A stretch of DNA of 64,000 nt from Eubacteriales bacterium (GTDB lineage: Bacteria; Bacillota; Clostridia; Oscillospirales; CAG-272): the NCBI GenBank assembly GCA_045532805.1, contig JAZSGQ010000032.1:21107-85106 (forward strand), given 5' to 3'. The translations under genes were made by a program, and so were the position numbers. The notes beneath the pieces are model-generated. The model ran no database searches and was not told the DNA's origin. It saw nothing but the letters and a program-made list of their open reading frames with translations. The stretch's first letter is position 1; every line of letters starts with the position of its first letter. Positions 5,119-64,000 of the stretch are shown here, piece after piece.

Positions 5119-7805
5119 TGCTCCATACCTTTCCGTTTCAGTCCCGTGCGTTTTCTCGACGGGCGTCTTGTCTTATAGTTTAAAATCAAAATTGCCGTGA
5201 TCGCCGCGCTTACGATCACCACCGTGGCGGTGATGATCAGGGGGCGCGTGTAATCTCTCTGTTCCTGCTCGGGTGCGTCACCCAAACTCGTTCCCTGCTG
5301 AATGGCGCTCACGCGCTGGGCAAGTTCACTGCTGCTCAGCACGTCGCTTTCCAGCGTAAAGGCGTACAGACACAGGCGGAAATCGCCCGTGCCCCCATCG
5401 AGCGGACGTGCAGAGATACGAAGACTTTGTACGGCAGAAAGTGCCGTTTTATAGTCGGTCATATCAAAATAGAAGGTGGTGTGCTCCCCTGCCGTCACCA
5501 CAGAGGACGCAACCGTCGTATCCGCCTCGCCATACATGCGGAACTGGACCTCATAACGAGCGCCCGCATCGCCCGCGAGTCTTAACTCAAAGCGCATCAT
5601 AGGCGCAAAGGAAAGATCGGTGGCACTTGTGAAGTGGTAAGCAATATCGGCGTACGCCTCGGTAGATTTCATAGATGCCGTGAGCGAGCGCAAACCGTCC
5701 GCACCCGTGAGCACGGACACGTCGGTACAACCCGTTCCGCTATACCAGCCAAGCGAGCCCGTTGCCGTGGTAAAGTTCCACGGTGTGAAACTACCGAGCG
5801 GCAAAACGTGACCGTGATAGTCATTCTGTGTCAGTGTAATGCTGCGCGTCTTGCGTGTGATGATCGTCTTTTCATCCAGTGTCGCATACAACTCCTTGAT
5901 CGAGCCGATGCGAAGGGCGGCCATGGCGGATTCCGACACTTCGGCAAAACGGTCGGTGTTCACGTAACGCGCCAGATACGAGAGAACGTGGCATGCGCGG
6001 CTCTCGCCTTTCTGCTCCGCGAGAGAAAAGTCCGCGATGAATGCCTCCACGCGAGGATTCTGAAGCAGCGCGAGATACAACATCAGGTAAGCACCCTTCA
6101 AGGCGTCTGCATCTGCTTGCTCATCGGGCGTCCAGGAAAAGAGAATGCTGTCACTCATAAAGCCATAGGTCGCGGCTTTGAGTTTGATATCCTCAAGGAA
6201 GGCCGACAGTCGGTCGATACTGTAACCGTCACCCGTTTCCTCGGTCACGCGATCGGGCAACTCTGCCGACTCCAGCATCAGCAAAAAGGGCTGTGGTTCC
6301 ATCACCTGCGACTGCAAGGACGAGAGCAATGCGGGCAGGAAGAACGTACTGTAATATTCCTTTCCGATCTCTGACTCTACCACGCTTCCCTGCCAGATGC
6401 GATCCGAGATCGGCACCACAATGCGAATATCCTCGATATTGCAAACCGCCGTACCCGCGATCAGGTTGAGTGCAGTTGCGTAAAGTTGTACGTAAGCGGC
6501 CATATCGGTGGCCGATGTATAACTGTATGCGTTGCGGTCGGCCGCACGGCCGAGCACAATGCCGCTGATCTTGCCGATCGTGGCATCCGAATAGCGGGCG
6601 GTCAGGAAGTTTGTCAGGGCGTGTACGTCCTGCTGTGCCTGCTCACCGCGGATCGCGGGCAGTTTATTGATCACACCCATATCCTTTTCGCTGTAATCGG
6701 TATAGGAGAAGCCGTTGGCATCGGCACTCACTAAAAAGCGCAGATACACGTGCGCGCCGATTCCCGTAAGGTTGCGAACGCGATTGTCGATCTCGCTAAC
6801 GTAGCCCTGATCGAAATAATAGTAGGAATGCTCGCCCGCATACAAAATACCGTTGCTTTGCGTGCTATGCAGGCGGTCGAGATATACGTCTACGATCTCA
6901 ACGTCGGGTGCACAGTCCAGCACAGTGGAAAGCGTGCCCGAGTGAAATCCCTTAAAGCCGTTCTCTGAGGCGGATCCGGAACTCTGTAGCGTGGGGAACG
7001 TGGGAGTGCAGAGCGGAATACGCTCACCCTTCTCATTCACGGCGGCCACGACGTAGCGCGAATAGAGCGCGTCCGACGTGGAGGCGTCCACGGTGAACGC
7101 AAAGTCAAACGTCACACCCATACGAGCGATGGGCGTCTTGTTGGAGAGGTGAAGTTCCTCGTCCGAAGCGAGTGCAAACAACGCCAGCGTCTGCCCTGCA
7201 TAGTAAACCGTCGCCTCGTAACTGAGTTTGCCCGCGATCTCGATCGTTTTATCCTCGGCATTGTAGTGACAACGCGAGTACGCCGCTTCCTCACTGCCCT
7301 CACTCACATACGTGGAGATGTTGAACAGTGCTGACAACGTCACCCGACCGCTTACGTCACTGTCGGAGGAGAAGGAGAGTTCCAGCGCACTGACCCGTTC
7401 GCCTATGTAGGGGGTATTCAGAAAGAAACTCTGCTGTGCTGTGGAGTGCTTATCCAGTTTATGTGATACCGTTGCCGTTTTTTGAATGGCATTCTCTTCA
7501 TACGTGTACGTCACGTGGATCTGATTGGCACCCGATGCATTAACGAGCGAGATATAGAGTGCGTTGGAAGTATGGGAAAGCATCTCGACGTCCACGGCGG
7601 TAAAGATGCGGTTGGTCGCCGTAAGAGTAAGGTCGATCGAATCGCCGTCTGCCTCGTATTTCTTTCCGTCAGCGGAAGAGAGCGCCGCAAACACAAAGCG
7701 CACGCCATCGATTCCCGCGGCTGAGACGGATAGCATCGCACACGCAGAGAGCAACACGGAAAGCATCAGTAAAATACAAAGACCGCGGCGCAGAACTGTA
7801 CGCAC
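5115..7805 (-). CDS. Large extracytoplasmic protein of unknown function with an N-terminal signal peptide and a C-terminal TM anchor
   Basis: About 896 aa. The N-terminus (RTVLRRGLCILLMLSVLLSACAMLSVSAAG) is hydrophobic and signal-like, and the C-terminus has a TM helix (LIITATVVIVSAAITAILIL) followed by a basic tail. The GTG at 7805 has AGGAGG 8 nt upstream, whereas the track start GTG at 7814 abuts the RBS. The middle region may be glycoside-hydrolase-like, which is unverified. Confidence 0.8.
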   Translation of the reverse strand: MRTVLRRGLCILLMLSVLLSACAMLSVSAAGIDGVRFVFAALSSADGKKYEADGDSIDLTLTATNRIFTAVDVEMLSHTSNALYISLVNASGANQIHVTYTYEENAIQKTATVSHKLDKHSTAQQSFFLNTPYIGERVSALELSFSSDSDVSGRVTLSALFNISTYVSEGSEEAAYSRCHYNAEDKTIEIAGKLSYEATVYYAGQTLALFALASDEELHLSNKTPIARMGVTFDFAFTVDASTSDALYSRYVVAAVNEKGERIPLCTPTFPTLQSSGSASENGFKGFHSGTLSTVLDCAPDVEIVDVYLDRLHSTQSNGILYAGEHSYYYFDQGYVSEIDNRVRNLTGIGAHVYLRFLVSADANGFSYTDYSEKDMGVINKLPAIRGEQAQQDVHALTNFLTARYSDATIGKISGIVLGRAADRNAYSYTSATDMAAYVQLYATALNLIAGTAVCNIEDIRIVVPISDRIWQGSVVESEIGKEYYSTFFLPALLSSLQSQVMEPQPFLLMLESAELPDRVTEETGDGYSIDRLSAFLEDIKLKAATYGFMSDSILFSWTPDEQADADALKGAYLMLYLALLQNPRVEAFIADFSLAEQKGESRACHVLSYLARYVNTDRFAEVSESAMAALRIGSIKELYATLDEKTIITRKTRSITLTQNDYHGHVLPLGSFTPWNFTTATGSLGWYSGTGCTDVSVLTGADGLRSLTASMKSTEAYADIAYHFTSATDLSFAPMMRFELRLAGDAGARYEVQFRMYGEADTTVASSVVTAGEHTTFYFDMTDYKTALSAVQSLRISARPLDGGTGDFRLCLYAFTLESDVLSSSELAQRVSAIQQGTSLGDAPEQEQRDYTRPLIITATVVIVSAAITAILILNYKTRRPSRKRTGLKRKGMEQ

Positions 7806-7843
7806 GCAAGGCACCTCCTTCCAAAAAGTAATGTCATATTGTT

Positions 7844-49357: not shown

Positions 49358-50194
49358 TCATTTCAGTTTATCCGCGATCATAGCGGCGGCATCGGCCAGC
49401 GGGTTGTCCGTGACGGACTCCACGCGTCCTTCGTCCACAAGCGCGGCAATGGCGGGATCCAGCGGCACGCGCGCCAGAACGGGGTAGCCAAACTCACGCG
49501 CCACCTCGCCGATATGGCTCTGGCCGAACACGGCGATCTCACGACCGCAATCGGGGCACTTCACAAAGCTCATGTTCTCCACAAGGCCGAGCACGGGCAC
49601 GTTCATCATATTCGCCATGTTGGCGGCCTTGGACACGATCATCGAAACCAGTTCCTGCGGACTGCTGACGATCACGGCACCGTCCAGTTTGATGGACTGG
49701 AAGACTGTGAGGGGCACGTCGCCCGTGCCGGGAGGGCAGTCGATGAGCAGAAAATCCACGTCGTCCCAGATGAAATCGGTGTAAAACTGCTTTACGGTAC
49801 CCGCGATCACGGGGCCACGCCATACCACGGGACTCTTTTCGTCGGGCAACAACAGATTGAGGGACATCACGTCGATGCCACCCGCGGTCTTGGGCGGGAA
49901 CAGTCCGCTCTCGTCACCGTCAAAGCCCTGCACGGGCGCAAGGCCAAAGGCCTTGGGGATCGAGGGGCCCGTGATATCCGCGTCGAGAATACCAACGTGG
50001 TAGCCCATTTTGGAAAGCGCCACGGCAAGCATCGAGGTCACAAGAGATTTACCCACACCTCCCTTGCCACTCATCACGGCGATGGTGTGCTTGATCGAAC
50101 TCTCGGCGTGCGGCTGCTCGTGCTGGGGAGCGGTGCGTTGAGAGCAATTGCTGGAGCACGAAGAGCAATCGTGCGTGCAAGTATTTTCAGCCAT
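49358..50194 (-). CDS. Mrp/NBP35 (ApbC) family Fe-S cluster carrier ATPase
   Basis: It has the deviant Walker A MSGKGGVGKS, a Cys-rich N-terminus (CTHDCSSCSSNC) and the C-terminal CPDCG. I chose the ATG at 50194. Confidence 0.9.
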   Translation of the reverse strand: MAENTCTHDCSSCSSNCSQRTAPQHEQPHAESSIKHTIAVMSGKGGVGKSLVTSMLAVALSKMGYHVGILDADITGPSIPKAFGLAPVQGFDGDESGLFPPKTAGGIDVMSLNLLLPDEKSPVVWRGPVIAGTVKQFYTDFIWDDVDFLLIDCPPGTGDVPLTVFQSIKLDGAVIVSSPQELVSMIVSKAANMANMMNVPVLGLVENMSFVKCPDCGREIAVFGQSHIGEVAREFGYPVLARVPLDPAIAALVDEGRVESVTDNPLADAAAMIADKLK

Positions 50195-50298
50195 AGATTC
50201 TACCTTTCTGCCGCCCTCGGCGGCTCTGTCATTCCATATTATTATACACCTTTCTGAGAGAAAATCAAGTCCCAAACCAAAAAATCCCTTCCCCGTGC

Positions 50299-50327
50299 TT
50301 GTCAAGCAAGGGAAATTGTGCTATAAT
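50299..50327 (+). promoter_or_regulatory. Candidate sigma-A promoter of the ABC exporter operon
   Basis: It reads TTGTCA, 17 nt, TATAAT, with an extended TGc at 50319-50321. Confidence 0.6.
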
Positions 50328-50357
50328 GATGACATTATGAAGAAAGGAGGATCACGT

Positions 50358-52082
50358 ATGGGTAAAATACTGCGCTATTTGAAGCATTATAAACTCGAAT
50401 CGGTGCTGGGCCCGTTGTTTAAGATGCTGGAAGCACTCTTTGAACTGTTCGTTCCGTTGCTCGTGGCGGACATTGTGGACGTGGGCATTGCAAACGGCGA
50501 TATGCCCTATATTTTAAAGCGCTGTGCGCTGATGGTCCTTCTGGGCGTTGTGGGGCTTGCCGCGTCGGTGACCGCACAGTATTTCTCGGCCAAAGCGGCA
50601 GTGGGTATGGCCACCGAACTCCGTTTTGCACTCTTCCAAAAGATCGGACGGCTTTCCTACCGTGAAACCGACCGTTTCGGCACCGCAACCCTCCTCTCCC
50701 GTACCACCTCGGACGTGGGACAGATCCAGAACACCGTCAATCTGGTGCTCCGCCTCTTCCTGCGTTCGCCCTTCATCGTGTTCGGCGCGATGATCATGGC
50801 CTTTACCGTTTCCCCCACCGCCGCGCGCACCTTCCTTATCACGATTCCCGCGCTCTCGGTGGTTATTTTCGGCATTATGCTCATCAGTATTCCGATCTAC
50901 GGACGCGTGCAAGCAAAACTTGACCGCGTACTGGGGCTCACACGCGAAAACCTCAAGGGCGCACGTGTGGTGCGTGCCTTTGTGCGTGAGCGGGAGTCCA
51001 TTGACGAGTTCACCGCTGCCAATGCAGAACTTACACGCCTCCAACGCTTTTCAGGGCGCGTGTCGGCATTGCTCAATCCCCTGACGCTGGTGATCATCAA
51101 CCTCTCCATTCTCGCCATCGTTTATCTCGGCGGTGTGGAGGTAAACAGCGGCACACTCGGCAAGGGTGACGTGATCGCGCTTTACAACTATATGTCCCAG
51201 ATCTTGGTGGAACTGATCAAACTCGCCAACTTCATCATTCTCATCACCAAGGCCTGTGCCTGCGGAAAGCGTATCAACCAGATTTTCGACGCGCCCGAGG
51301 GACTTCCCAAGAGCGAAGAAAAACAGAATATGTGCCATAACGGTGTGGAATTTCGCCACGTTTCCCTCGCATATAACGCTGGGGGCGAGCAGGCACTTAC
51401 CGACATTTCCCTCACGGCGGGCGCAGGCGAGACCGTCGGCATCATCGGCGGCACAGGCTCGGGAAAATCCTCCCTTGTCAATCTCATTCCGCGTCTGTAT
51501 GACGTGAGCGAGGGCGCCGTGCTCGTGGGCGGCGCGGACGTGCGCGAACAGGACCTTGACGCACTGCGCGCACGCATCGGCATCGTGCCGCAAAAAGCGG
51601 AACTGTTTGCGGGCACCATACGCGAAAATCTTCTGTGGGGTGATGCCACTGCCGACGATGCTCTATTATATGAAGCGTTGGAAGCCGCGCAGGCCGCCGA
51701 CTTCGTGCGCGCCAAAGAGGGCGCACTGGACGCTCCCGTGGAACAGGGCGGTCGCAATTTCTCGGGCGGCCAGCGTCAACGATTGACAGTGGCGCGCGCC
51801 CTTGTCAGACGCCCGCAGATCCTGATTCTAGACGATAGTGCCTCGGCGCTGGATTACGCCACCGATGCCGCACTGCGCGCGTCGATTGCGTCTCTTCCCT
51901 ACCGTCCCACCGTGTTTATCGTGAGTCAGCGCACCGCTTCCATCGAGACCGCCGACAGGATCCTCGTGTTGGAGGACGGTAAGACCGCAGGCATCGGCAC
52001 GCACGCCGAACTCCTTGAAAACTGCCCCGTATACCGTGAGATCTATGACTCGCAATTTAAGAGCGAGGAGGTGATCCCGTGA
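50358..52082 (+). CDS. ABC exporter, fused permease and ATPase (half-transporter 1 of a heterodimer)
   Basis: The ATG at 50358 follows AAAGGAGG. A six-TM domain is followed by Walker A GGTGSGKSS, the signature FSGGQRQRL and Walker B LILDDSASALD. Confidence 0.92.
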   Translation: MGKILRYLKHYKLESVLGPLFKMLEALFELFVPLLVADIVDVGIANGDMPYILKRCALMVLLGVVGLAASVTAQYFSAKAAVGMATELRFALFQKIGRLSYRETDRFGTATLLSRTTSDVGQIQNTVNLVLRLFLRSPFIVFGAMIMAFTVSPTAARTFLITIPALSVVIFGIMLISIPIYGRVQAKLDRVLGLTRENLKGARVVRAFVRERESIDEFTAANAELTRLQRFSGRVSALLNPLTLVIINLSILAIVYLGGVEVNSGTLGKGDVIALYNYMSQILVELIKLANFIILITKACACGKRINQIFDAPEGLPKSEEKQNMCHNGVEFRHVSLAYNAGGEQALTDISLTAGAGETVGIIGGTGSGKSSLVNLIPRLYDVSEGAVLVGGADVREQDLDALRARIGIVPQKAELFAGTIRENLLWGDATADDALLYEALEAAQAADFVRAKEGALDAPVEQGGRNFSGGQRQRLTVARALVRRPQILILDDSASALDYATDAALRASIASLPYRPTVFIVSQRTASIETADRILVLEDGKTAGIGTHAELLENCPVYREIYDSQFKSEEVIP

Positions 52083-53860
52083 GTAAAAAGGCAATAAAAA
52101 AAGCACCGCGCGGCACGTTGCGGCGCGTGCTCTCCTATCTGCGCGGCTACCGCTCGTACCTCGCCGCATCACTTGTGTTAAGTCTTGTGACCGTGGCGTT
52201 CACCCTATGGCTCCCCGTGCTGATCGGCGAAGCCATTGACTTGATGTTAGCCCCCGGACGGGTCGAGTTTTCCGCCATTTTGGATATCTTCAAACTGGCG
52301 GCGCTCCTCATTCTCATCACCGCCGCGTGTCAATGGCTGATGAACGTTTGTAACAACAAAATGACCTATGGCGTGGCACGCAATATCCGCAACGACGCCT
52401 TCCGCCATCTGCAAAAACTGCCGCTTTCCTATCTGGATACGCATAAGATCGGCGACACCGTCAGCCGACTGGTCGCTGACGTGGATCAGTTCACCGACGG
52501 TCTGTTGCTCGGCTTCACACAACTCTTCACGGGGGTGCTCACGATTCTTGGCACCCTGGCATTTATGCTGTGGATCCACCCCGGCATCACACTGGTTGTT
52601 GTAGTGGTCACTCCCCTGTCGTTGTTCGTCGCTTCCTTTATCGCAAAGCGCACGTACAATATGTTCCAGTTGCAAACCCGCATTCGCGGTCAACAGACCG
52701 CACTCATGGAAGAGGCGATCAGTTCTCACAAAGTGGTCGTGGCGTTCTCACAGGAAGACGAGTTGCTCCAAAAATTCGACGAACTGAACACCCGCCTCGG
52801 CAAGGCGTCGCTGAATGCCACCTTCTTCTCTTCTTTGGTCAACCCCTCCACACGCTTTGTTAACAGTCTTGTATATACGGGCGTAGCACTGGTGGGTGCT
52901 GTCACTGTGATGGGAAGCGGCGGTGCCGCGATCACAGTCGGCGCACTGTCCACCTTCCTCTCGTATGCCAATCAGTACACCAAGCCCTTCAACGAGATAT
53001 CGGGCGTGGTAACCGAACTGCAAAGTGCACTTGCCTCGGCCGCACGCATCTTTGAAGTCCTGGACGCCACCCCCGAACAACCCGACAACGAAAATGCAAC
53101 CGCTTTGTTACACCCTGCCGGGCGTGTCACGTTCCGCGACGTTGCTTTCTCCTACAAACCCGAGCGTCCTCTCATTCGTGATCTGGATCTTGAGGTACTC
53201 CCCGGTCAGCATGTGGCCATCGTCGGCCCGACGGGCTGTGGCAAGACCACGCTCATCAATCTGCTGATGCGCTTCTATGACGTGAAGGAAGGTGCCATTC
53301 TCATTGACGGTACCGACCTGCGCGATATGACGCGCGAGAGTCTGCGGAACTCGGTCGGCATGGTGTTGCAAGAGACCTGGCTCCGAGCAGGGACCGTAGC
53401 CGATAACATTGCATTCGGCAACCCCGATGCCACGCGCGAACAGATCGTGGCGGCCGCCAAGGCGGCGCACGCCCATAGCTTTATCAAGCGCTTGCCAAAA
53501 GGGTATGATACCGTGATCGGCGAGGAAGGCGGTTCACTTTCGCAGGGACAGAAGCAGTTGCTTTGCATCAGCCGCCTGATGCTCTCCCCTCCCCCTATGC
53601 TCATTCTGGACGAGGCCACCTCCTCGATCGACACCCGCACCGAGCGACGCATACAACGCGCATTCGCCACGTTGATGCGAGGGCGCACCTCTTTTGTGGT
53701 CGCTCACCGACTCTCCACTATTAAAGAATCCGATCTCATTCTTGTCATGAAAGACGGACAGGTTGTGGAGCAAGGAAAGCACGAAGAATTGCTCCGGCGA
53801 AAAGGATTCTATCACACACTGTATCACAGTCAGTTCGCGCAAAGCGAAGCCGAGGCATAA
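52079..53860 (+). CDS. ABC exporter, fused permease and ATPase (half-transporter 2)
   Basis: It overlaps the upstream gene by 4 nt. Walker A GPTGCGKTT, signature LSQGQKQLL, Walker B LILDEATSSID. Confidence 0.92.
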   Translation: MSKKAIKKAPRGTLRRVLSYLRGYRSYLAASLVLSLVTVAFTLWLPVLIGEAIDLMLAPGRVEFSAILDIFKLAALLILITAACQWLMNVCNNKMTYGVARNIRNDAFRHLQKLPLSYLDTHKIGDTVSRLVADVDQFTDGLLLGFTQLFTGVLTILGTLAFMLWIHPGITLVVVVVTPLSLFVASFIAKRTYNMFQLQTRIRGQQTALMEEAISSHKVVVAFSQEDELLQKFDELNTRLGKASLNATFFSSLVNPSTRFVNSLVYTGVALVGAVTVMGSGGAAITVGALSTFLSYANQYTKPFNEISGVVTELQSALASAARIFEVLDATPEQPDNENATALLHPAGRVTFRDVAFSYKPERPLIRDLDLEVLPGQHVAIVGPTGCGKTTLINLLMRFYDVKEGAILIDGTDLRDMTRESLRNSVGMVLQETWLRAGTVADNIAFGNPDATREQIVAAAKAAHAHSFIKRLPKGYDTVIGEEGGSLSQGQKQLLCISRLMLSPPPMLILDEATSSIDTRTERRIQRAFATLMRGRTSFVVAHRLSTIKESDLILVMKDGQVVEQGKHEELLRRKGFYHTLYHSQFAQSEAEA

Positions 53861-53874
53861 TGAAAACAACGTCC

Positions 53875-53905
53875 AAAGGGCCGCCATTGTTTGGCGGCCC
53901 TTTTT
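53875..53905 (+). terminator. Intrinsic terminator of the ABC exporter operon
   Basis: The hairpin gggccgcca-ttgtt-tggcggccc is followed by ttttt. Confidence 0.85.
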
Positions 53906-54180
53906 GTGTCTCGGTTTCGCTGTTTTGTGTCGGTTAATTCGCGTTGTTGGAGAATCTCGTCAATTTCTCACGTTTGTTTTTGGAAATTCTATTTACTTTT
54001 TTGGAATTTTTGTCGGGTGCAGAATTGATGCTTGTGCGCGTTTCTTTCCTCTCGTCACGCAAACCACCCGCCCCTCAAGGGAGACCTTCGCCCGCTTTTT
54101 TCAAAATGGCACAATGCGTTATTGCACGCATGGAGAACAATATCCACTATTTTATGATTCCGTATCGCACAATCCCGCGT

Positions 54181-54347
54181 CATCCTGAGCGCAGCATGCA
54201 CTCGCCGCGCGAATGCGGCGGAGTCGAACTGCAAAGCAGTGCCGAGCAAAGCGAAGGCAGGATCTCGCGGAACGCAATGTAGCCCCCCTGCAAGACCCTG
54301 CACGCCTGCGGCGCGCACCGCTTTGCGGTTCGACTCCGCTCAGGGTG
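54181..54347 (+). repeat. GC-rich imperfect palindrome with a 20-bp inner stem, an 8-bp outer stem and an 82-nt interior
   Basis: Nt 54218-54237 (gcggagtcgaactgcaaagc) pairs with 54320-54339 (gctttgcggttcgactccgc) at 19 Watson-Crick pairs plus one T-G. Nt 54181-54188 (catcctga) pairs with 54340-54347 (tcagggtg) with one T-G. Both imperfections are wobble-compatible only in the plus-sense RNA. Confidence 0.6.
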
Positions 54348-54598
54348 GCGCAGGGGGCGCATACGGCGTCGTGCGACAAAACAAATTGTAACGATTTTGT
54401 TCAAATTGCCCCACGGCCGTACCCCACCGAAGAAAGCAAAAAACGGAGTCGCAAAAAGCCCAGCAATGGCGCGGATTTGCGCGTTTTCGATTTCTTCACA
54501 TTCAATTTACAACTCGTCCTTTTTTCTTCCCGTCACGGCACATTTTTCCTCCCCGTTTTGTGCGAACCGCCAAAAGTTGTCTTTTGTGGCAAAACCTA

Positions 54599-54627
54599 TT
54601 GACTTTAATTATAAATTAGTGTAAAAT
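54599..54627 (+). promoter_or_regulatory. Near-consensus sigma-A promoter of the giant ORF
   Basis: It reads TTGACT, 17 nt, TAAAAT. This predicts a leader of about 80 nt before the ATG at 54715. Confidence 0.6.
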
Positions 54628-54714
54628 GGCCGTGAACAAGTATATTATACGTGCGAAGTTAATTACTTGAGACTTTTGTATCGGGGGATCAAGCCCTCGA
54701 GGAAAGAGGTAAAC

Positions 54715-57700
54715 ATGAACAAAACCTTAAGACGAGCATTGACGTTCCTGATCATTGCGACCTGTCTTGTGTGCGCCATGGCACTGTCGGCTTCGGCCTG
54801 TGCATGGGCAAACGCGCAAGCCGCAGAAGGAACCCCTGCGACTTACAGCTCGGACAGTGACGCATATGCTGCAGGAGTCCACCTCTACGGTGAATCGAAC
54901 TATTGCAGCGGAGTGAGCCGGGAGAACCTTTTCTCCTACGGGAACCTTTTCTCCTACGGCAAGCTCTATTGCGATCCTGCGAAGACAACGATTGCAGACG
55001 CCGTTAGGTGCTTCTACGACACTTGCCTTGTCGATAATCCCGAGAACACTGCAGCAGTGATGAAGATCCTCGACTACACAGAGGCGAATACTGCCGCAGA
55101 GTATAATCTCTACGTCTACGTGATCGACAGCAACGACACCGTCGTTCGCAAGACCGTGAGCGCCTACTACGGCTCGGCTGATCTCCAGACCGCAATCAAG
55201 GACGCTCAGGTTTACGACCTCGACGCCACGTCCAAAACCTGGGCGTTTGCTCGAATCAGCGAGTCTGGCACGGATATCGTCGTTTGCGCCGGTGATGATG
55301 CATGCGCCGTAGCTACGAAAGACCGTGTGAATGGCGGTTACCACTACACCCTCGACGGAAGCACCGGCGCGTACACCGTGTACTACACGCTCGACGCCGC
55401 TATGGCCGCATCGACCGCCTTTACCGACGTTGCCAACGTCACCAACGCAACCGCCAAGACGTTCAACTATGACGGCGTTACATATACCGTTACGACCTCT
55501 CTGTCTACCGACGAGCTTGCAAAGGAAGCAGGCGCGGCAGCCAAGGTTGGTGACGATCAGTATTTCAGCAACTTTGCCACGGCATTGAGCGCAGGCGGCG
55601 ACATTCTTGATTTCAATGCGACCGCATACACAAACACGCTCACCTTCAAGTTCAACAATCAGGACGTCACTGTCAAGACCGATGCCGCTTCGGTCATCGA
55701 TCTGATGGAGAACTCCTCGCTTGGATTCATGGTGGCCATTGGCGTTTCCGCCGACGGCACGCACAGCGTGATCAGCTACTACGACGCGGCTAATGCAGCT
55801 GAATGCAAGCCTCTTATCGAGGCAAGCGGCACCACCTATCAATGGGTGCAGCTTTACAACCGCTACGTCAATAGCTACAGTTACAGCATGCGCTATCTGT
55901 TTGTCTACGAGCGTCTTTCCGACTGCATCGAGGCAAGATACAACTGGTCCGAGGACGTTGTATATGAGGGCGTCCCCGTTGCCGACGGTTACACGCTGGA
56001 TCCCAACGGTTACAGTATCTACCGTTTGGACACGTTGGGCACCGACACGATCACCGATGGCTTCACCCTTTACAAAAACGGCAAAGATTTCCTGACGTGG
56101 AACATCAAGATTCACGTGCCCGGCTATACCAACGGCACCACTGCGGTGCAGCAGTATATCTCCAAGGTTCTGTCCGATGAGGGCGTATATCAGTGTTTCT
56201 CGTACGTGAACACCGGCGCGAAGCCCTTCTCGTTCTATAAGTCTGTATCCGACGTGATCGCGGCGGGCGATACGGGCAGCATATTTATGCTCGAGGCCGT
56301 CTACGATCCGACCGGAACGAACATTTTTGATGGCACCACCGCTACAACGGTAAGCGTAAACGGCACCACTTACAACTTCCGTGTCGCCACCGACTCCACC
56401 GCCCAGGAGATGCTGACCTCCGACGGAAGCGTCTACGCTACCGTGACCAACGGTGAGGACGTCTCCTACTACTCCTCTGCCGCGGCATTGAAGGATGCCG
56501 GCGAGCTTCAGGACACCACGACCTACATTATTCTTAAGAGCGATGGCACGATCCTGGAGTTCACGAGTTTTGCTGTTGCACTTGCCGCTTACACGGAAGG
56601 CACGCTTATGCCCGTGGCAACGGACGGCACGCTCACCACTACGCTGATGAGTTTTGCCGGCGTTATTTGCCCCGTGCAGCACAGCGGCACTGCCGACGAG
56701 TTTGCACTGTCCGAGGGCTATAAGTATAAGGTTGCCTACGTGTCAGTGCTTGCACTTGGCTCGACACCCGAATACGTTTACTATACGACGCTGGCCGATG
56801 CAACGGCAGCCGCAGGCGGCGCAACCGTTTACGATCTTGCCAACGCAAGTGAGAATACCGTCACCGTAACCGTTGACGGCACCGACTACACCCTTGCCAC
56901 CACGCTGACCGCCGACGTGCTTGCGATCGAGTTTGGTGCAAAGTACTCTGCAAACGGCGCTTATTTCACGACGCTTGAGAAGGCGAACGCTGCCCAGACC
57001 GACAAGATTCTTGTTGTGGGCACCGAGGCAAACGGCATTACACCTCTTTCCTACTATGCCGACCTTAAGGCCGCAGCGGCTGCAGGCGCTACCACGATCG
57101 TGGATCTGAACGCAACCGCTACCACTGCCACCACGGTGACGATGGACGGCATGACCTATACCGTCACCACCGACGAGACGTCTCTGGACGCGCTGGCCGT
57201 AGCACTTGGTGCAGTAGCAAAGCTTGGCGACGCGTACTACACGACGCTCTCCAAGGCGATCACGGCGCTCAGCGCAGCCGATCAGACCATCTATCTGATC
57301 GCCAACTATGCCCAGCCCGAACCGATCCGCGGCGGCGACCTTCCGGCTGAGACGGGCAAGGTATCTGCTCCCTACAACTTCACACTGAGCAGCACCGATC
57401 CCGAGAGCATCACGCTCACTATCAGTGGCAGCCGTCTTTTCGACCTGGGCGATGGCTCCAAGATCGTTCCCACGTTGAAGAACATCACGATCAACTGTGG
57501 CGCGAAGGATCTCGGCTACTTTAATAACGTCACCGTCATTCTTGATGAGGGCACCCACGTCTACGGTACCGGAAGCAGCAACGGTGTTGTATACGGAGGC
57601 GGCAACGCCAACATCACCGTCAATGCAGACGTAACGATCGAGGCAAGCGGCGCTAATCCTCTTTTCAAAATTCCTAAAGCCACGCTGACCATCAACGGCG

Positions 57701-60700
57701 GCACGTTTACTCATTCCGGCTCCGGCAACATCATTTCCCTTACAAATGGCACACTTACCATTTCGGGCGGCACCTTTACGCACAGCGGCACCGGCAGCGC
57801 AGCCGACAACGGCCTTGTGCTGTATGTTTCCAACGAAAGTACAACAACCATTTCGGGTGGCACGTTTGAAAAGAGCACCGTAAACGACAACGTGCTTTAT
57901 ATCTACTCTACGAAGGCCACCGTTAATATCGAGGGCGGTACGTTCAAGATTTCCTACGCCGATGCCACCGCTGAACTGATCAAGATCAGTTCGCTCGGAG
58001 CGCTCAACATTTCGGGCGGTTCCTTCGTCAATGAGGGCAAGAGCAGCTATCTGATCAACTATGCAGGCACAACCGCAACCGGCGTCATCAAGATTACTGA
58101 GGATGCCTACCCCACGCCGAGCAATGTGCTCCTTTACGGCAAGGCAATTTTGGCCGACGACACCACGGCAATCAAGCTCGGTTACGTGGCACGCATCGGC
58201 GAGCAGACCGCCAAGGGTTTGTCTTCCACTAATTATTATAAGACGCTTGCAGACGCCGTAACCGCGGCCAATGACGACGGCGTAGATTCCACGATCACCC
58301 TGATCACCGACGTGGAGCAAACGGCAAGCCTCAGCCACGTGGCTTCCAAAATCACCTTCACCAGTGCGGGCACACGCAAGAAACTCACGCTGAAGGTGGA
58401 TAACGCGTTTGACGCCGACACCAGCGCACAGTTGACCTTCGAGAACATCGAGGTGGACTGCGGCAGTTATCTGCTCGGTTGGTTCAGCAACGGCGATACG
58501 TTGACTATCGGCAACGGTGCATACATTCACGGCGTAGGCACCTCGGGATTTGATGTCGCCACCGGTCTGATCTATCTGGGCAACGCCAATGCAAAACTCT
58601 ACGTACTGGACGGTGCCGAGCTGAAGGCAACGGGCTCTTACCCCATTTTACATATTGGAAACGGCACGGCCGAGATTTCGGGTGGCACCTTCACGCACGA
58701 AGGCACAGATCATATCCTGACTGTAAACGATGGACGTGCAAACATTTCGGGCGGCACCTTCACTCATGAAGGCACGGGCAGTATTTTCCAGACAACCGGA
58801 CAACAGACCGCAGGCATCAAGGTAACCGGCACCGTAACTGCCACGCACAAAGGTAATGGCAAGGGCTACATTTATCAAAGAGCCGAGACTATCAAAGACG
58901 ATTACACCGGAGGAGGCGGAACCCAAGGCGGCTTTTATGCCGAGGGCGAGAACGTTAGCTTGATCGCTCGGGGTGATGCCAAGCTTTTCTTCAGCGGCTA
59001 TATCCCTTCGGAAGCAGGCTTTGTGACAACGCTTCCCAACGGTGCCACGGTGGGCTCGTCTTTGACCGTCAAGGACGCAACCCTCTCCGTTGATAGCAAC
59101 ATCGCGTGCGATATCAATGCCGAATACCTCAATCTCCAAAACGTGAAGTTCGTCAACGATACAGCGGCAGCGGCGTTGATGGGTTCCTATGGCGCCAACA
59201 CTGCCCCGTATCACGTGGCAGCCTTCCGTGTTGGCAATACTACGGGTCAGGGCTACTTCACCGACCTTGGCGTAGCCATTCAGTACGCCCAGACGCTGAG
59301 CGCAGCTGCGACGCAGAATGGTGCCTTTGTATACGTGCTGGCCGATGCAAGCCCCTTCGGTCTATTCAAACGAGTCACCACCTCCGTAACGCTTACGGGC
59401 GGCAAGGTGACTGTTACGAGCAACAATGCAACAGCACCCAAGCTTGATATTTCCGGCAGTGCCTATCGCTTTGTTATTGAAAGCGGTGCAGAACTAATCC
59501 TTGACAACATCGAAGTGACCGTCGGCGGCAAGCTCGCCGAGGTCAAAGAGGGCGGCAAGCTGACCATTGAAGGTGGCTCGTACACCGCAAACGGCAACGC
59601 TAACGTATTTTCGAACGGCGGCACAATGACCATAAACGGCGGCACGATCAAGCATAACGGCACCCAGGATACGATCACGACCACCGGCCCGCTGACAATC
59701 AATAACGACAGCAAACTCGAGAAGCGTGGCGACAACAACCTGATCAACACAAACGGGAACGCCGTTGTCACGATCAATGATAACAGTGAACTGATAAAGG
59801 ACGGCACTCACTATATCGTCAATACGCGAGGCTCTGCCGCAGTTTATATTTACGGCGGCAGATTCAGCGCGATCGGCGAGGCCTATATTTCCCGCGCGCA
59901 GACCGCCGGCACGTACACCTACGTTTACGGCGGCACCCGCGAAACGGGTAAAATCACCAGAGATGACGGCAATTACCGTGATTATCTGCTCTTCATGTCG
60001 GACGAGGCGGCTGCAGGCTTTGACCTCGTTGCCCGCATCGGCAAGCCCTCCGATTGGAGCCAAGGCTATGCATACTCCAATTATTATATGACGCTGGCAG
60101 CGGCCATCGCGGCTGTTCCCGACAACACGGCAACGACCATTTACGTCTTTGCTGACACGACGATCAGCGAGGCCATTACTGTTCCCGGCGCGAAGAACAT
60201 CACGCTTCAGGGTGTGAAGGTTGAGGGCGCAACCAACTGGCCCACGGTTTCCGAGACGATTTCCGCATACGCCATTGCTCTGGGCGGGGGCGCACAGCTG
60301 ACCGTGACCGACCTCAACTTCAGCACGAACGGCGCGATCCTCAAGGCCGACGTTGGTGCCGCCAAATCTTCCCTGACGCTGAACGGCGCAACCAAGGTAC
60401 AGGGCAATACTCTTGCGGCCGACGTGATCATGCTCTGCGGCAACGTGACCTTTGAGCTTGGCGCAAATGCAGAGATCACCACGCGCGGCACGACTTCTAC
60501 CGATACGGATTTCCGTCTGTTCCAGATTTCGAACAGCGGCGAGGCCGCCACGACGTGCAACTTCTACGGCAAGATCGACTTTGCGCACGAGAATACCGCC
60601 GGCAACTCTCAGCACCGTGTCTTCTATTTCAACAGCGCACAGAAAAATGTGGTCAACATTTACGACGGCGCGACCATGATCTTTGACGTGATCGGCGTCA

Positions 60701-63700
60701 CTGAAAAGAGAGCCGATGGCCAAGCCGGTTCCAACGCGATCCTGTACGCTTATCACGGCGATGGCGCCAAAACGACCTTTAACGTCTATAACGCAACGCT
60801 GGAATACAGATCCAATATCGGCTGCATTGTAAACCTCTACGGTGCGAGCGCGCTTCACGTGCACAAGTCCGAGGTCGAAGGCAAGTCTCCCGTATTTAAG
60901 TACAAAAGCGGAACCACATGCTCCACAGCCAAGGTTATCTGGCTTCATGATAGTTCTTCCGCCCTCATCGAGGACGGCAAATTCGAAATGCAGGGCGGCC
61001 AGATCACCTGTATCCAACAGGCCTCCAAGGGCGATCTCACCATCGAGGGTGGCACCTTCACCCATGAGGGAACGCACTACTTCGTCGACCTGGACGGTGC
61101 ATACTCCGCGACCATTGAATACGGTAAGTTTGAGCATAATGGCTCCAGCGGCAACGCGCGTCTTTTCCGTACGATCAATGGCGGCCAGCTCACCATCAAG
61201 GGCGGCGAGTTCCGCAACAACTCCAAAGATGACGGTTATGTCCTTATTGCAAATAGCGGTGACGCTACCCTTAACATCTCCGGCGGTGACTTCTATAGCA
61301 AGGGCTCCGCAAAAACCTTCTCCTTCAGAAGTGCAACCGCCATCGTAAACATCACGGGCGGTAACTTCCACCACATCGGCTCTGGTCCTATTATCCTCTC
61401 AGATACGGCCAATACAACGATCAACATCTCCGACGCGGACGGTGCCGTTTACTTCGAGCATACGGGCGACGGTAGGATCATCAATAACAGCAACGGCGCA
61501 TACTACACGATCAAGGGCGAGGGTGTTGCCCTTGTCGCCAAGGGTGCTGCCATTCCCTTCCGTTCCTACTATCGCATCTCCATTGAGGACGCTTATCTCT
61601 ACACCGAAGCGGCTACCGGCGCCGAATGGGATAGCCAAAAAAATCAACAAAGAGATGCCTATCGTAGCGATTACGTCGTAAAGAATGCAAGATTCGACAA
61701 CGACGCAATGGCCGAAAAGTTCAACGTCCACTTCCGCGTTGGCCTTGTCACCGATAGCATTACGGTAAATAAGGCAACCAAGAACGTAACCTGCGGTTAC
61801 TACAACACGCTTTATGCTTCCATTGCCGCAGCACAGGCGGACGCTGCAGTCACGACCAACGCCGGCGCGTTCGTTTACGTCATTTCCGAAACAGTACCCG
61901 AGACGGCAATCGGTACCGCGGGCATGTACGTTACCGCGGGCAAGATCACCGTTACCTCCGCACCGAATGTGCACGCAACGGTCAACCTCAATGGCAACGG
62001 TTATCATTTCCGTCCCAAGGGTGGCACGTTCGTATTCAAGGATATCACGCTCTACACCAAGGGCAACTTTGCACAAGTTCAAAACGGCGGCACGCTGACG
62101 CTTGACAGCGGCGCAACGGTCTGCGGCCCGATGCTTCGAGGTGGCACCCGTATTTCGTTTGCACAAAACGCCTTTAACGTACATCTGAACGTACTTAAGG
62201 GTGCGATCCTTCGCATCGACGCAACCGACGACCCCACCGCCGTTGACGCGCATCTGATCTACGTCAACGGCGAGAACCCGTCCAAGGGCGACACCGCTCC
62301 CGAGGGAACGATCACGATTGCGGGCACGGCAGAAAACCTGGCCGATTGCACCGGAGCGGATAAGGCTCTAGCTTACCTGCTTGAGATCGGTCCTGCCGTC
62401 AAGATGGACATTACGCTCACAGGTACGCTCCGTATGGCGGCAACCTGCAAGGAAAGCGCTTTGCTTGACGTAAAGGGCGCGCTCCTTCCCTACACAGAAA
62501 ACGGCGGCCTTTACATCAACGGTAACTTCGAGTTTGCCTCTACGGCGGGCGTGATGTTCAAGTTCCACACCGCGACCGCTACGATTGCGGGTGGTACCTA
62601 CAAAACGCAAAACGGTCACACCTTCTACGTGGGTACAGAAGTAGCCGTTTCCACCATTAACATCACAGGCGGCGAGTTCGAGCATAACAGCAACAGCCAC
62701 TTCGCAAACAACTATTTCAATGTTGATAAGATGGCAGACGTTCCTCAGCTGACGATCAACCTCAGCGGCAACACCTCCATTGAGTACAACGGCACCGCGC
62801 GCGTGTTCAACAACGTTTACCATGTCAACGCTTCTGAGAACACCTACATCAACCACACAGGCGCTAGCGGCTATATCTTCTGCGTGACCGGAGGCGGCTG
62901 CTCCGTCACGATTGAGGGCGGCACGTTCACGAGCAACGGTGCACGTCTGGTGCACATCAACTCGTCTACCGGATCTCTTGCGATTTCCGGCGGTGACTTC
63001 ACGCAGAATGGCGACAACTCCATGCTGTACACCATTGTTCCCGTACAGATTTCGGACAGCACCTTCACCCACAAGGGAATCGGTACAATCTTCCACACAC
63101 TCGCTCACGAAGCTGGTGTCAGCATCAGCGGCGAGACCATTGTCACGCACGAAGGTAACGGCGACGGATACATTTGGGAGAGAAAATACGGCGGTTTCCA
63201 CGCCGAGGGCGAGGACGTACAGCTTATTGCCAAGGGCAAGGCCGTTCTGCTCTCTACGGGCTATAGCAGCCCTCAGGCAAATCTTCCCAACGGCTCTCGC
63301 GCTGCCATTAAGGACGCTACCATCTCCGTAGAAAGCAAGATCATCTGTGCACAAAACGTAGAGTGGGTAGACCTGATCAACGTCCGAATCAAGGACGACG
63401 CAACCGCAGCGGCACTCTTCGGCTACTACGGTTCCGAGAATCCCAAGCCCCAGCACACCGTTGTTTCCTTCCGCGTCGGCGACATGGGAGGCCAGGGCTA
63501 CTACACGCACCTGAAGGACGTACTGGACGCAGTGCCCGACAACCAGGAAACCACCGTTTGCGTACTGGCTGACGTGTACTTCTCTCAGACTGCCACCCGC
63601 GTTACGGTGCCCGGCACGAAGAACGTGATTTTGAAGGGCATCAAGGTAGGCGACGCGACCGAGAATCCCACGTTCTACGAGAACATTACCGATGATTATC

Positions 63701-64000
63701 TCATTACTCTCGCGGACGGTGCAAGCCTGACCATTACCGACGTGAACATCAGCACGAACGGTTACGTCTTCTACTCCGGTACCGGCACAGCGCCCAACCT
63801 CAAGCCCACCTTCCTTACCTTGGACGGTGCGACCAAGATCCAGGGCGTAGGCACGCTGCAGGCACGCATCGTGGAAACCTTCGGTTCCTTTACGTTTACT
63901 GCAACAAAAGACGTGGTTATTTCCACCAGAGGCGCAAAGAGCGCAGGCGACTTCCGTATGTTCTTCATCGGCAATCACGCTACCAAGGGCGTCTTTGCAA
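54715..64000 (+). CDS. 3'-truncated giant secreted repeat protein (more than 3,095 aa inside the window), predicted beta-helix/adhesin-like. It is absent from the supplied ORF track.
   Basis: I translated every codon from the ATG at 54715 to nt 63999 and found no stop in 3,095 codons. GAAAGAGG lies 5 nt upstream. The N-terminus MNKTLRRALTFLIIATCLVCAMALSASACAWA looks like a Sec signal peptide. Third codon positions are G/C-rich. At least 19 I-x-G-G-x-F-x-H-x-G rungs and reiterated FRVG...YYxTL motifs are present. The window ends before the stop. Confidence 0.9.
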   Translation, partial: MNKTLRRALTFLIIATCLVCAMALSASACAWANAQAAEGTPATYSSDSDAYAAGVHLYGESNYCSGVSRENLFSYGNLFSYGKLYCDPAKTTIADAVRCFYDTCLVDNPENTAAVMKILDYTEANTAAEYNLYVYVIDSNDTVVRKTVSAYYGSADLQTAIKDAQVYDLDATSKTWAFARISESGTDIVVCAGDDACAVATKDRVNGGYHYTLDGSTGAYTVYYTLDAAMAASTAFTDVANVTNATAKTFNYDGVTYTVTTSLSTDELAKEAGAAAKVGDDQYFSNFATALSAGGDILDFNATAYTNTLTFKFNNQDVTVKTDAASVIDLMENSSLGFMVAIGVSADGTHSVISYYDAANAAECKPLIEASGTTYQWVQLYNRYVNSYSYSMRYLFVYERLSDCIEARYNWSEDVVYEGVPVADGYTLDPNGYSIYRLDTLGTDTITDGFTLYKNGKDFLTWNIKIHVPGYTNGTTAVQQYISKVLSDEGVYQCFSYVNTGAKPFSFYKSVSDVIAAGDTGSIFMLEAVYDPTGTNIFDGTTATTVSVNGTTYNFRVATDSTAQEMLTSDGSVYATVTNGEDVSYYSSAAALKDAGELQDTTTYIILKSDGTILEFTSFAVALAAYTEGTLMPVATDGTLTTTLMSFAGVICPVQHSGTADEFALSEGYKYKVAYVSVLALGSTPEYVYYTTLADATAAAGGATVYDLANASENTVTVTVDGTDYTLATTLTADVLAIEFGAKYSANGAYFTTLEKANAAQTDKILVVGTEANGITPLSYYADLKAAAAAGATTIVDLNATATTATTVTMDGMTYTVTTDETSLDALAVALGAVAKLGDAYYTTLSKAITALSAADQTIYLIANYAQPEPIRGGDLPAETGKVSAPYNFTLSSTDPESITLTISGSRLFDLGDGSKIVPTLKNITINCGAKDLGYFNNVTVILDEGTHVYGTGSSNGVVYGGGNANITVNADVTIEASGANPLFKIPKATLTINGGTFTHSGSGNIISLTNGTLTISGGTFTHSGTGSAADNGLVLYVSNESTTTISGGTFEKSTVNDNVLYIYSTKATVNIEGGTFKISYADATAELIKISSLGALNISGGSFVNEGKSSYLINYAGTTATGVIKITEDAYPTPSNVLLYGKAILADDTTAIKLGYVARIGEQTAKGLSSTNYYKTLADAVTAANDDGVDSTITLITDVEQTASLSHVASKITFTSAGTRKKLTLKVDNAFDADTSAQLTFENIEVDCGSYLLGWFSNGDTLTIGNGAYIHGVGTSGFDVATGLIYLGNANAKLYVLDGAELKATGSYPILHIGNGTAEISGGTFTHEGTDHILTVNDGRANISGGTFTHEGTGSIFQTTGQQTAGIKVTGTVTATHKGNGKGYIYQRAETIKDDYTGGGGTQGGFYAEGENVSLIARGDAKLFFSGYIPSEAGFVTTLPNGATVGSSLTVKDATLSVDSNIACDINAEYLNLQNVKFVNDTAAAALMGSYGANTAPYHVAAFRVGNTTGQGYFTDLGVAIQYAQTLSAAATQNGAFVYVLADASPFGLFKRVTTSVTLTGGKVTVTSNNATAPKLDISGSAYRFVIESGAELILDNIEVTVGGKLAEVKEGGKLTIEGGSYTANGNANVFSNGGTMTINGGTIKHNGTQDTITTTGPLTINNDSKLEKRGDNNLINTNGNAVVTINDNSELIKDGTHYIVNTRGSAAVYIYGGRFSAIGEAYISRAQTAGTYTYVYGGTRETGKITRDDGNYRDYLLFMSDEAAAGFDLVARIGKPSDWSQGYAYSNYYMTLAAAIAAVPDNTATTIYVFADTTISEAITVPGAKNITLQGVKVEGATNWPTVSETISAYAIALGGGAQLTVTDLNFSTNGAILKADVGAAKSSLTLNGATKVQGNTLAADVIMLCGNVTFELGANAEITTRGTTSTDTDFRLFQISNSGEAATTCNFYGKIDFAHENTAGNSQHRVFYFNSAQKNVVNIYDGATMIFDVIGVTEKRADGQAGSNAILYAYHGDGAKTTFNVYNATLEYRSNIGCIVNLYGASALHVHKSEVEGKSPVFKYKSGTTCSTAKVIWLHDSSSALIEDGKFEMQGGQITCIQQASKGDLTIEGGTFTHEGTHYFVDLDGAYSATIEYGKFEHNGSSGNARLFRTINGGQLTIKGGEFRNNSKDDGYVLIANSGDATLNISGGDFYSKGSAKTFSFRSATAIVNITGGNFHHIGSGPIILSDTANTTINISDADGAVYFEHTGDGRIINNSNGAYYTIKGEGVALVAKGAAIPFRSYYRISIEDAYLYTEAATGAEWDSQKNQQRDAYRSDYVVKNARFDNDAMAEKFNVHFRVGLVTDSITVNKATKNVTCGYYNTLYASIAAAQADAAVTTNAGAFVYVISETVPETAIGTAGMYVTAGKITVTSAPNVHATVNLNGNGYHFRPKGGTFVFKDITLYTKGNFAQVQNGGTLTLDSGATVCGPMLRGGTRISFAQNAFNVHLNVLKGAILRIDATDDPTAVDAHLIYVNGENPSKGDTAPEGTITIAGTAENLADCTGADKALAYLLEIGPAVKMDITLTGTLRMAATCKESALLDVKGALLPYTENGGLYINGNFEFASTAGVMFKFHTATATIAGGTYKTQNGHTFYVGTEVAVSTINITGGEFEHNSNSHFANNYFNVDKMADVPQLTINLSGNTSIEYNGTARVFNNVYHVNASENTYINHTGASGYIFCVTGGGCSVTIEGGTFTSNGARLVHINSSTGSLAISGGDFTQNGDNSMLYTIVPVQISDSTFTHKGIGTIFHTLAHEAGVSISGETIVTHEGNGDGYIWERKYGGFHAEGEDVQLIAKGKAVLLSTGYSSPQANLPNGSRAAIKDATISVESKIICAQNVEWVDLINVRIKDDATAAALFGYYGSENPKPQHTVVSFRVGDMGGQGYYTHLKDVLDAVPDNQETTVCVLADVYFSQTATRVTVPGTKNVILKGIKVGDATENPTFYENITDDYLITLADGASLTITDVNISTNGYVFYSGTGTAPNLKPTFLTLDGATKIQGVGTLQARIVETFGSFTFTATKDVVISTRGAKSAGDFRMFFIGNHATKGVFA
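54924..54959 (+). repeat. Perfect 2 x 18-nt in-frame tandem duplication inside the giant ORF
   Basis: The unit gaaccttttctcctacgg occurs at 54924-54941 and again at 54942-54959. It encodes NLFSYG-NLFSYG. Confidence 0.95.

Follow-up and report, generated by a model that had tools for sequence, protein, structure and literature searches.

Tandem beta-solenoid modules and a conserved inter-module element in a giant secreted protein on a Clostridia contig

Few genes of gut anaerobes are as poorly annotated as those for giant surface proteins. A 64,000-nucleotide (nt) stretch of contig JAZSGQ010000032.1 (GenBank assembly GCA_045532805.1, Eubacteriales bacterium), hereafter the window, ends inside a gene that poses the problem directly: from an ATG at position 54715, frame 1 contains no stop codon up to the window end, a run of 3095 codons, and the gene, 9.3 kb of which lies within the window, continues past 64000. 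What kind of protein does it encode, how has it grown to this size, and what might it do for the cell? The product has no match in Pfam or NCBIfam at E-values up to 1, and none in PHROGs or among PDB sequences. It can nonetheless be read through its repeat grammar and predicted fold, which identify a secreted, very large protein of tandem beta-solenoid modules with a conserved element between them. With moderate confidence, we interpret it as a giant Sec-secreted fibre or adhesin in which at least six tandem, capped, right-handed beta-helix domains follow a lineage-specific N-terminus of about 800 amino acids (aa).

Repeat grammar and predicted fold

The start codon of the giant gene is preceded by GGAAAGAGGT, a ribosome-binding site, and the frame opens with a Sec-type signal peptide (Table 1). 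The large open reading frames (ORFs) on the opposite strand across this span are shadows of frame 1.

Two short elements recur along the translation. The first is the rung, whose very regular form, xLTI-xGG-TFTH-xGxG, would make up the later coils of each domain. Its core, I-x-G-G-x-[FY], is found 17 times by a regular expression run on the translation (at aa 993, 1016, 1046, 1072, 1099, 1321, 1344, 1618, and 1712, and again at aa 2110, 2161, 2188, 2213, 2624, 2650, 2733, and 2757), against a mean of 0.21 and a maximum of 3 in 1000 shuffles. A hidden Markov model (HMM) of the rung recovers degenerate copies at 59632 (INGGTIKHNG), 61114 (IEYGKFEHNG), and 63049 (ISDSTFTHKG), as well as an additional one at 59848 (IYGGRFSAIG), for a total of about 20 rungs spaced 21–31 aa apart inside their groups. 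An initial annotation of the sequence, made by a model from the letters alone, had listed nineteen copies with a spacing of 66–90 nt within clusters; all nineteen lie at the positions it gave, the spacing agrees with that found by the HMM, and the rung at 59848 had escaped it. Its division into four clusters needs revision, however. There are five groups, one in each of modules M0 to M4, and the second of the original clusters straddles the cap at 59218.

The second element, the linker-cap, stands between the rung groups. In each domain it would run from a short helix (..DxAAAxxxG..) through a strand ([AF]R[IV]G) to a capping helix (YYxTLxxAIxAA). The strand motif [AF]-R-[IV]-G occurs at aa 1159, 1504, 1773, 2340, and 2919, and YY-x-T-L at aa 1174, 1514, 1790, and 2362, both more commonly than in shuffled sequences; the fifth cap reads YYTHL near aa 2930. 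Each of the five cap-like motifs initially reported was located.

The structure of most of this repetitive region was predicted with AlphaFold2 in two models, the first covering aa 838–1500 (mean predicted local distance difference test score [pLDDT] 70.3) and the second aa 1499–2345 (mean pLDDT 71.5, predicted template-modelling score 0.63). In both, the coils are 22–27 residues long, and DSSP assigns the rung clusters short strands in periodic triplets every 23–27 residues, with pLDDT of 85–92. In rung group 1, for instance, a strand TLTI is followed by a turn NGG, a strand TFTH, a loop SGSGNI, a strand ISLT, and a turn NG, and successive TLTI strands are 23 residues apart. The predicted coils thus adopt the three-sided layout of a beta-helix, with LTI and TFTH providing two of the three strands of a modelled coil and GG the tight turn between them. 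Searched against the PDB with Foldseek, the models return almost exclusively right-handed parallel beta-helices at the top: PL6 alginate lyases (E 8e-5, probability 0.97) are followed by GH55 enzymes, and further matches include PL3, pectin methylesterases (probability 1.00), GH87, the HK620 and Sf6 tailspikes, and the adhesin passengers Vag8 (template-modelling [TM] score 0.55 on the target), Ag43, UpaB, and EtpA. The earlier proposals that the sequence is internally periodic, that its rung clusters form a solenoid, and that their spacing matches a right-handed beta-helix coil are therefore borne out by the motif counts, the rung HMM, and a chunked self-BLAST, all significant, by the predicted three-stranded coils, and by the leading structural matches, all of that fold.

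The models resolve four separate solenoid bodies, each confined to one module (Table 1), and the linkers between them, which contain the cap element, have pLDDT below 50. Before each body the models place a short helix at, or adjacent to, YYxTLxxA (helices at residues 8–13 and 341–350 of model 1, and at 20–33 and 296–301 of model 2). With a pLDDT of 33–83 these helices are of low confidence; their predicted placement is that expected of an N-terminal beta-helix cap.

These features bear on whether aa 990–3095 might instead form a single continuous beta-helical rod, for which the initial annotation proposed a test, with the caps as mere irregular coils within it. In favor of a rod, the linkers are of low confidence and not confidently disordered, M3 alone is modelled as a solenoid of about 500 residues, and reported lengths of single beta-helix domains exceed 1000 aa (PMC11532034). 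Yet over the modelled range, aa 838–2345, the prediction gives discrete bodies; a helix is predicted at every YYxTLxxA, and in both models the solenoid strands end ahead of it and resume beyond it. Moreover, the linker-cap forms the mature N-terminus of related proteins, as befits a cap that opens a helix, and also occurs in the N-terminal region in units that have no body. A continuous rod is accordingly improbable.

In total, the protein contains at least six diverged tandem modules (M0–M5), of which four have modelled bodies and two are assigned by paralogy. M4 is paralogous at its start to the start of M2 (E 3e-12) and at its end to the end of M1 (E 2e-31); M5 aligns with the start of M3 (E 4e-30). 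Among the modelled modules, M0 is paralogous to M1 (E 1e-20 to 7e-23). The N-terminal region ahead of them holds three units of about 75 aa (aa 214–296, 681–763, and 780–856) that carry the linker-cap motif and lack a beta-helix body. They share the pattern ..TYTVTT..LA..GA.AK.GD.YYTTL..A and are detected as internal repeats (E 3.5e-7 and 6e-4), and YY/YF-x-T/D-L occurs in this region at aa 689, 750, 780, and 841.

Table 1. Features of the giant gene and of its product (positions in the window; body ranges in the product and in the two AlphaFold2 models)
Feature	Position (nt)	Strand	Residues (aa)	Description
Giant gene, 5' part	54715–64000	+		Frame 1 open from ATG at 54715; at least 3095 codons
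Signal peptide	54715–54816	+		Sec-type, MNKTLRRALTFLIIATCLVCAMALSASACAWANA; read directly from sequence
N-terminal region	54817–57225	+	35–837	Lineage-specific; three ~75-aa units inside
Module M0	57226–58179	+	838–1155	Cap YYTTLSKAI, then body at ~aa 887–1117 (model 1 residues 50–280, pLDDT 70–92)
Module M1	58180–59208	+	1156–1498	Cap ARIG...YYKTLADAVTAA at 58189–58275; body ~aa 1192–1477 (model 1 residues 355–640); junction segment HKGNGKGYIY...GGFYAEGENVSLIARG at 58843–59208
Module M2	59209–60018	+	1499–1768	Cap AFRVG...GYFTDLGVAI at 59218–59307; body ~aa 1558–1723 (model 2 residues 60–225, pLDDT 70–92)
Module M3	60019–61719	+	1769–2335	Cap VARIG...YYMTLAAAIAAV at 60028–60123; single ~500-aa body, ~aa 1790–2298 (model 2 residues 292–800, continuous strands, pLDDT mostly 70–90); diverged junction segment at 61453–61719
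Module M4	61720–63456	+	2336–2914	Cap HFRVG...GYYNTLYASIAAA at 61729–61836; body; junction at 63145–63456; assigned by paralogy
Module M5	63457–63999	+	2915–3095+	Cap SFRVGDMGGQGYYTHLKDVLDAV at 63466–63537; cut by window end
Rung group 1	57670–58047	+	986–1111	Five xLTIxGGTFxHxGxG coils, spacing 24–28 aa; three strands per coil by DSSP; HMM domain E 1e-10 to 5e-8
Rung group 2	58651–58785	+	1313–1357	Two coils; rung HMM E 1e-9, 6e-10
Rung group 3	59545–59889	+	1611–1652, 1704–1725	Three coils; rung HMM E 1e-8, 2e-5, 1e-7
Rung group 4	61024–61392	+	2104–2226	Five coils; rung HMM E 4e-11 to 8e-3
Rung group 5	62560–63087	+	2616–2791	Five coils; rung HMM E 1e-7 to 0.27

A new protein family and the history of its modules

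An exhaustive HMMER scan of 1.84 billion cluster representatives with aa 1149–2348 yields 17 relatives at E ≤1e-3, 15 of them 1198–3504 aa in length. All 17 carry near-identical signal peptides ending GASA-A, after which the mature protein starts directly with a linker-cap element. They use the same cap and the same rung, of which about 150 copies are spread over 18 proteins, and the most conserved positions of the family are structural, namely, the GG turns and an interior ladder of Phe and Ile. Every relative is a singleton cluster derived from an NCBI, ENA, or Logan assembly. The N-terminal 849 aa of the giant protein have no counterpart in any family member. When a profile of the M1-type module is used, only two marginal matches are obtained (P0024 and P0025), and the contig of P0025 is uninformative as to context.

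The best relative, P0007, is 3215 aa long and 35% identical (E 3e-109). It is not encoded within the window and is apparently a second giant paralogue on the same contig, in the roughly 21 kb beyond the window. Across P0007–P0022, C-terminal regions of 500–800 aa are shared within at least four groups, one of which ends in ...TIGxITITLTEGGN and another in ...YYLVVTATA..GATF. Apart from weak PA14-like matches, Pfam recognizes none of these regions, through which the fibres may be anchored or may bind.

The family is rare and unannotated. No significant Pfam domain is present in the nine relatives scanned. Beta_helix (PF13229) appears below threshold in two small relatives, P0021 (21.7 bits) and P0023 (17.3 bits), against a cut-off of 25.9, two relatives show weak PA14-like Pfam matches, and P0007–P0010 match no Beta_helix, NosD, or pectate-lyase profile. 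A tblastn search of GTDB representative genomes finds no relative; neither do JGI metagenomes, whether by exact 35-mer or by the degenerate pattern FDLG...VPT..[ND]I, which does match the window; and the 50,697 phage genomes, IMG/VR, and the plasmid collection contain none, as far as these sets could be searched. Neither the complete protein nor its final 351 aa finds a match in a word-indexed homology search, not even the product of the window gene itself, which is thus apparently missing from that collection. The exhaustive HMMER scan likewise does not return this product; its length may exceed what the collection admits, or it may be annotated as a pseudogene. The proteins constitute a new sequence family whose architecture is of a kind already known.

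How the gene came by its modules can be traced in part from alignments within and between family members. Chunked self-BLAST of the translation substantiates the internal paralogies that had first been noticed by eye. The segment at 58843–59235 is related to that at 63145–63480 (aa 1311–1564 versus 2745–2969, 42–44% identity, E 7e-38 and 3e-30; 48.5% over 167 aligned columns for aa 1311–1500 versus 2745–2914), with a weaker, more diverged third copy of the junction at 61453–61743 (aa 1403–1597 versus 2259–2443, 28%, E 1.5e-7), and the segment at 60100–60560 is related to that at 63530–64000 (aa 1790–1940 versus 2929–3087, 46%, E 2e-29). A further pair joins aa 825–1028 with 1149–1356 (31–38% identity, E down to 2e-22). 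At the DNA level, repetition is limited to the rung codons (60–90% identity over about 40 nt), so the duplications are old. Synonymous sites between modules are saturated (pS 0.61–0.69, dS at least 1.3), and the ratio dN/dS, proposed earlier as a check on module divergence, is for this reason uninterpretable.

The end of M1 and that of M4, like the start of M3 and that of M5, are reciprocal closest relatives at 42–48% identity, which points to duplication within the lineage of the window gene. One copy of the duplicated unit runs [M1 end]-M2-[M3 start]; the other, [M4 end]-[M5 start], lacks M2. By local alignment the M5 cap is a hybrid whose first half, as far as GQGY[FY], follows the M2 cap and whose second half, beginning with YYxxL, follows that of M3, which implies that the whole of M2 was inserted or deleted exactly from cap to cap. 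Other modules find their nearest kin elsewhere. The M0 cap region is closest to P0012 (aa 1161–1313, 40% identity), the M2 body to P0007 (aa 381–533, 46%, E 6e-38), and the cap and middle of M4 also to P0007 (46% and 42%); these module types are older than the divergence of the family. Since several modules are closer to those of other family members than to their neighbors, much of the modularity predates the window gene. The earlier proposal of growth by duplication of modules of 270–580 aa is thus borne out by significant internal alignments and requires this one refinement. Taken together, the gene would have grown through duplication, loss, and shuffling of such modules, with the caps marking the sites at which modules can be exchanged, in coincidence with the breakpoint of the whole-module insertion or deletion. 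Such a cap-to-cap event offers a concrete model for the evolution of genes of this kind.

A bolder extension, unlikely though worth stating, is that the family comprises previously undescribed beads-on-a-string surface fibres of gut Clostridia in which the linker-cap doubles as an in-frame recombination junction, and entire modules are acquired, lost, and swapped between giant paralogues on the same chromosome, thereby diversifying surface or ligand specificity.

Candidate function and genomic setting

As a fibre or adhesin, the protein would be long, rigid, protease-resistant, and displayed at the cell surface. Binding to glycans or to other gut surfaces would fall to the flanks of its beta-helices and perhaps to the unique N-terminal region, which would serve as a distal head. 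Such a role is drawn by analogy with the adhesin-like proteins of gut methanogens, and the beta-helical passengers of Gram-negative adhesins presumably work in this way too; the weak PA14-like matches in two relatives would also fit it. The caps, for their part, would let each module fold alone and would block edge-to-edge aggregation. If the adhesin reading is true, the family is a candidate means of attachment for uncultured hindgut Clostridia, whether to particles, to mucus, or to partner cells.

Several observations weigh against this interpretation. Means of attachment to the cell are not apparent: no LPXTG-like motif occurs in the last 80 aa of the 17 relatives and no clear transmembrane anchor in any of them, SLH and other cell-wall-binding Pfam domains are absent from the nine relatives scanned, and the C-terminus of the window protein itself lies outside the window. 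On the structural side, the AlphaFold2 input alignments contained 6–9 in-gene paralogues and nothing else, and given the low pLDDT of the linkers it is uncertain how the bodies are placed relative to one another and even whether the cap is helical. The Foldseek E-values are weak, with TM scores of 0.13–0.31 on the query that support the fold class and nothing finer, and handedness is assigned from the identity of the matches.

The same structural matches raise the prospect of a multi-catalytic polysaccharide-degrading enzyme, whose modules would attack plant cell-wall or host glycans as lyases, hydrolases, or esterases of the pectate-lyase fold. The leading structural matches are to PL6, GH55, PL3, and GH87 enzymes and to pectin methylesterases, and a hindgut Clostridia host from herbivore-type communities would suit such an activity. 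However, adhesin passengers and tailspikes match the models equally well, no carbohydrate-active beta-helix family is hit in Pfam or NCBIfam even at the permissive threshold used (the profiles of PL1/3/6/9, GH28/55/87, and CE8 are all unmatched), and the M1-type module profile matches no PDB sequence. With the conserved positions structural and no plausible catalytic set among them, an enzyme seems quite doubtful.

The absence of any recognizable binding or catalytic domain from a giant, secreted, repetitive solenoid would also be in keeping with a passive structural part, such as a cell-surface coat, a biofilm matrix, or a spore appendage, that has no specific ligand; the sporulation gene DpaA is present in the window. 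Against this, the N-terminal region varies by lineage and module content by paralogue, which fits ligand-facing diversification better, and S-layer or cell-wall-binding domains were not detected. We consider a purely passive role rather unlikely.

In CdiA-type systems, toxins are carried on long beta-helical stalks. The giant protein might likewise be a stalk whose C-terminus, beyond the window, bears the active domain of a polymorphic toxin or contact-dependent effector, and the family groups do differ in their C-terminal regions of 500–800 aa. These regions, though, are large and 34–68% identical within groups, unlike short hypervariable tips, and toxin or immunity families were not detected in the relatives scanned, making a toxin stalk very improbable indeed. 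A secreted fibre or adhesin remains our preferred reading.

The rest of the window is ordinary chromosome, encoding PolC, IspG, Dxr, EF-Ts, a ClpB-like ATPase, DpaA, FolD, and Lgt, together with M16 peptidases, a sigma factor, and two ATP-binding cassette (ABC) exporter subunits. PolC is at best 77% identical to proteins of metagenome-assembled genomes of roe-deer caecum Clostridia and Oscillospiraceae, and six neighboring proteins are singletons at 90% identity; the host is an uncultured, probably spore-forming member of the gut or hindgut Clostridia related to Oscillospiraceae.

Directly upstream of the giant gene and on the same strand lies an overlapping pair of ABC exporter genes (50148–53860, +), each with fused membrane and ATPase domains. 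A terminator-like hairpin at 53875–53903 ends the gene upstream and separates the pair from the giant gene. The non-coding leader between this terminator and the giant gene is unusually long, at about 810 nt (53904–54714), and contains promoter-like sites at 54131–54158 and 54599–54627. No Rfam family matches it at gathering thresholds, and scanning the whole window for Rfam families and tRNAs likewise gives nothing. Near the N-terminus of the giant protein, a perfect 18-nt tandem duplication (GAACCTTTTCTCCTACGG twice, 54924–54959) encodes NLFSYG-NLFSYG and represents either recent slippage or an assembly artefact. A lipoprotein was considered and rejected, the cysteine standing in an ASAC context that lacks the usual Leu at -3 and the signal peptides of the relatives ending GASA-A. 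Farther away, a 1030-aa ORF, its frame open from the window start (1–3167, +), has no Pfam or NCBIfam match, and an 899-aa protein (5115–7814, -) that matches only DUF5722 appears by eye to start with a signal peptide and to carry, at its C-terminus, a hydrophobic stretch followed by a basic tail.

Comparison with known systems

Long, repetitive right-handed beta-helices are familiar from the passengers of the Gram-negative autotransporter and two-partner-secretion adhesins Ag43, UpaB, Vag8, and EtpA and from the chlamydial Pmp proteins (GGA[ILV]/FxxN), whose repeats, like the rungs described here, place a glycine-containing turn before an aromatic residue in the next strand. Those proteins are single continuous helices delivered through an outer-membrane barrel, whereas the window protein uses the Sec pathway and would display discrete capped helices in a PolC-bearing member of the Bacillota. 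Membership among the chlamydial Pmp proteins or autotransporters was rejected: PF02415, TIGR01376, and passenger repeats are unmatched, no outer-membrane barrel domain occurs in the relatives scanned, and PolC and DpaA mark a Bacillota host. The phage tailspikes of HK620, Sf6, and CBA120 share the beta-helix fold by Foldseek; a phage tail-fibre origin was also rejected, the phage collections holding no sequence relatives and the gene lying among chromosomal housekeeping genes.

PL6 enzymes (7o7t, 5gkd, and 7dmk) and the GH55 enzyme Lam55A (3eqn) are the best structural matches to the model of aa 838–1500, with E-values of 8e-5 to 3e-3. Like the window protein, they consist of tandem right-handed beta-helices with three-stranded coils. 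They are 9–11% identical to it and give no profile match, and they comprise two modules as opposed to at least six; no catalytic motif can be identified in the window protein.

The nearest known analogues are the adhesin-like proteins of gut methanogens, in which as many as seven right-handed beta-helix domains occur, with caps that are alpha-helical (PMC11532034). The proteins of Methanobrevibacter smithii and Methanosphaera stadtmanae resemble the window protein in being large, secreted products of gut anaerobes with several such domains per chain; each domain bears an N-terminal alpha-helical cap, and adhesion to glycans or cells is their presumed role (PMC11532034). They differ in being archaeal and in having domains that InterPro and Pfam beta-helix models recognize, whereas the window protein matches none of these Pfam models and its relatives all carry one bacterial-type signal peptide. 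The likeness would be one of architecture only. The current understanding of such proteins stands, in that tandem capped beta-helices were already known in surface proteins.

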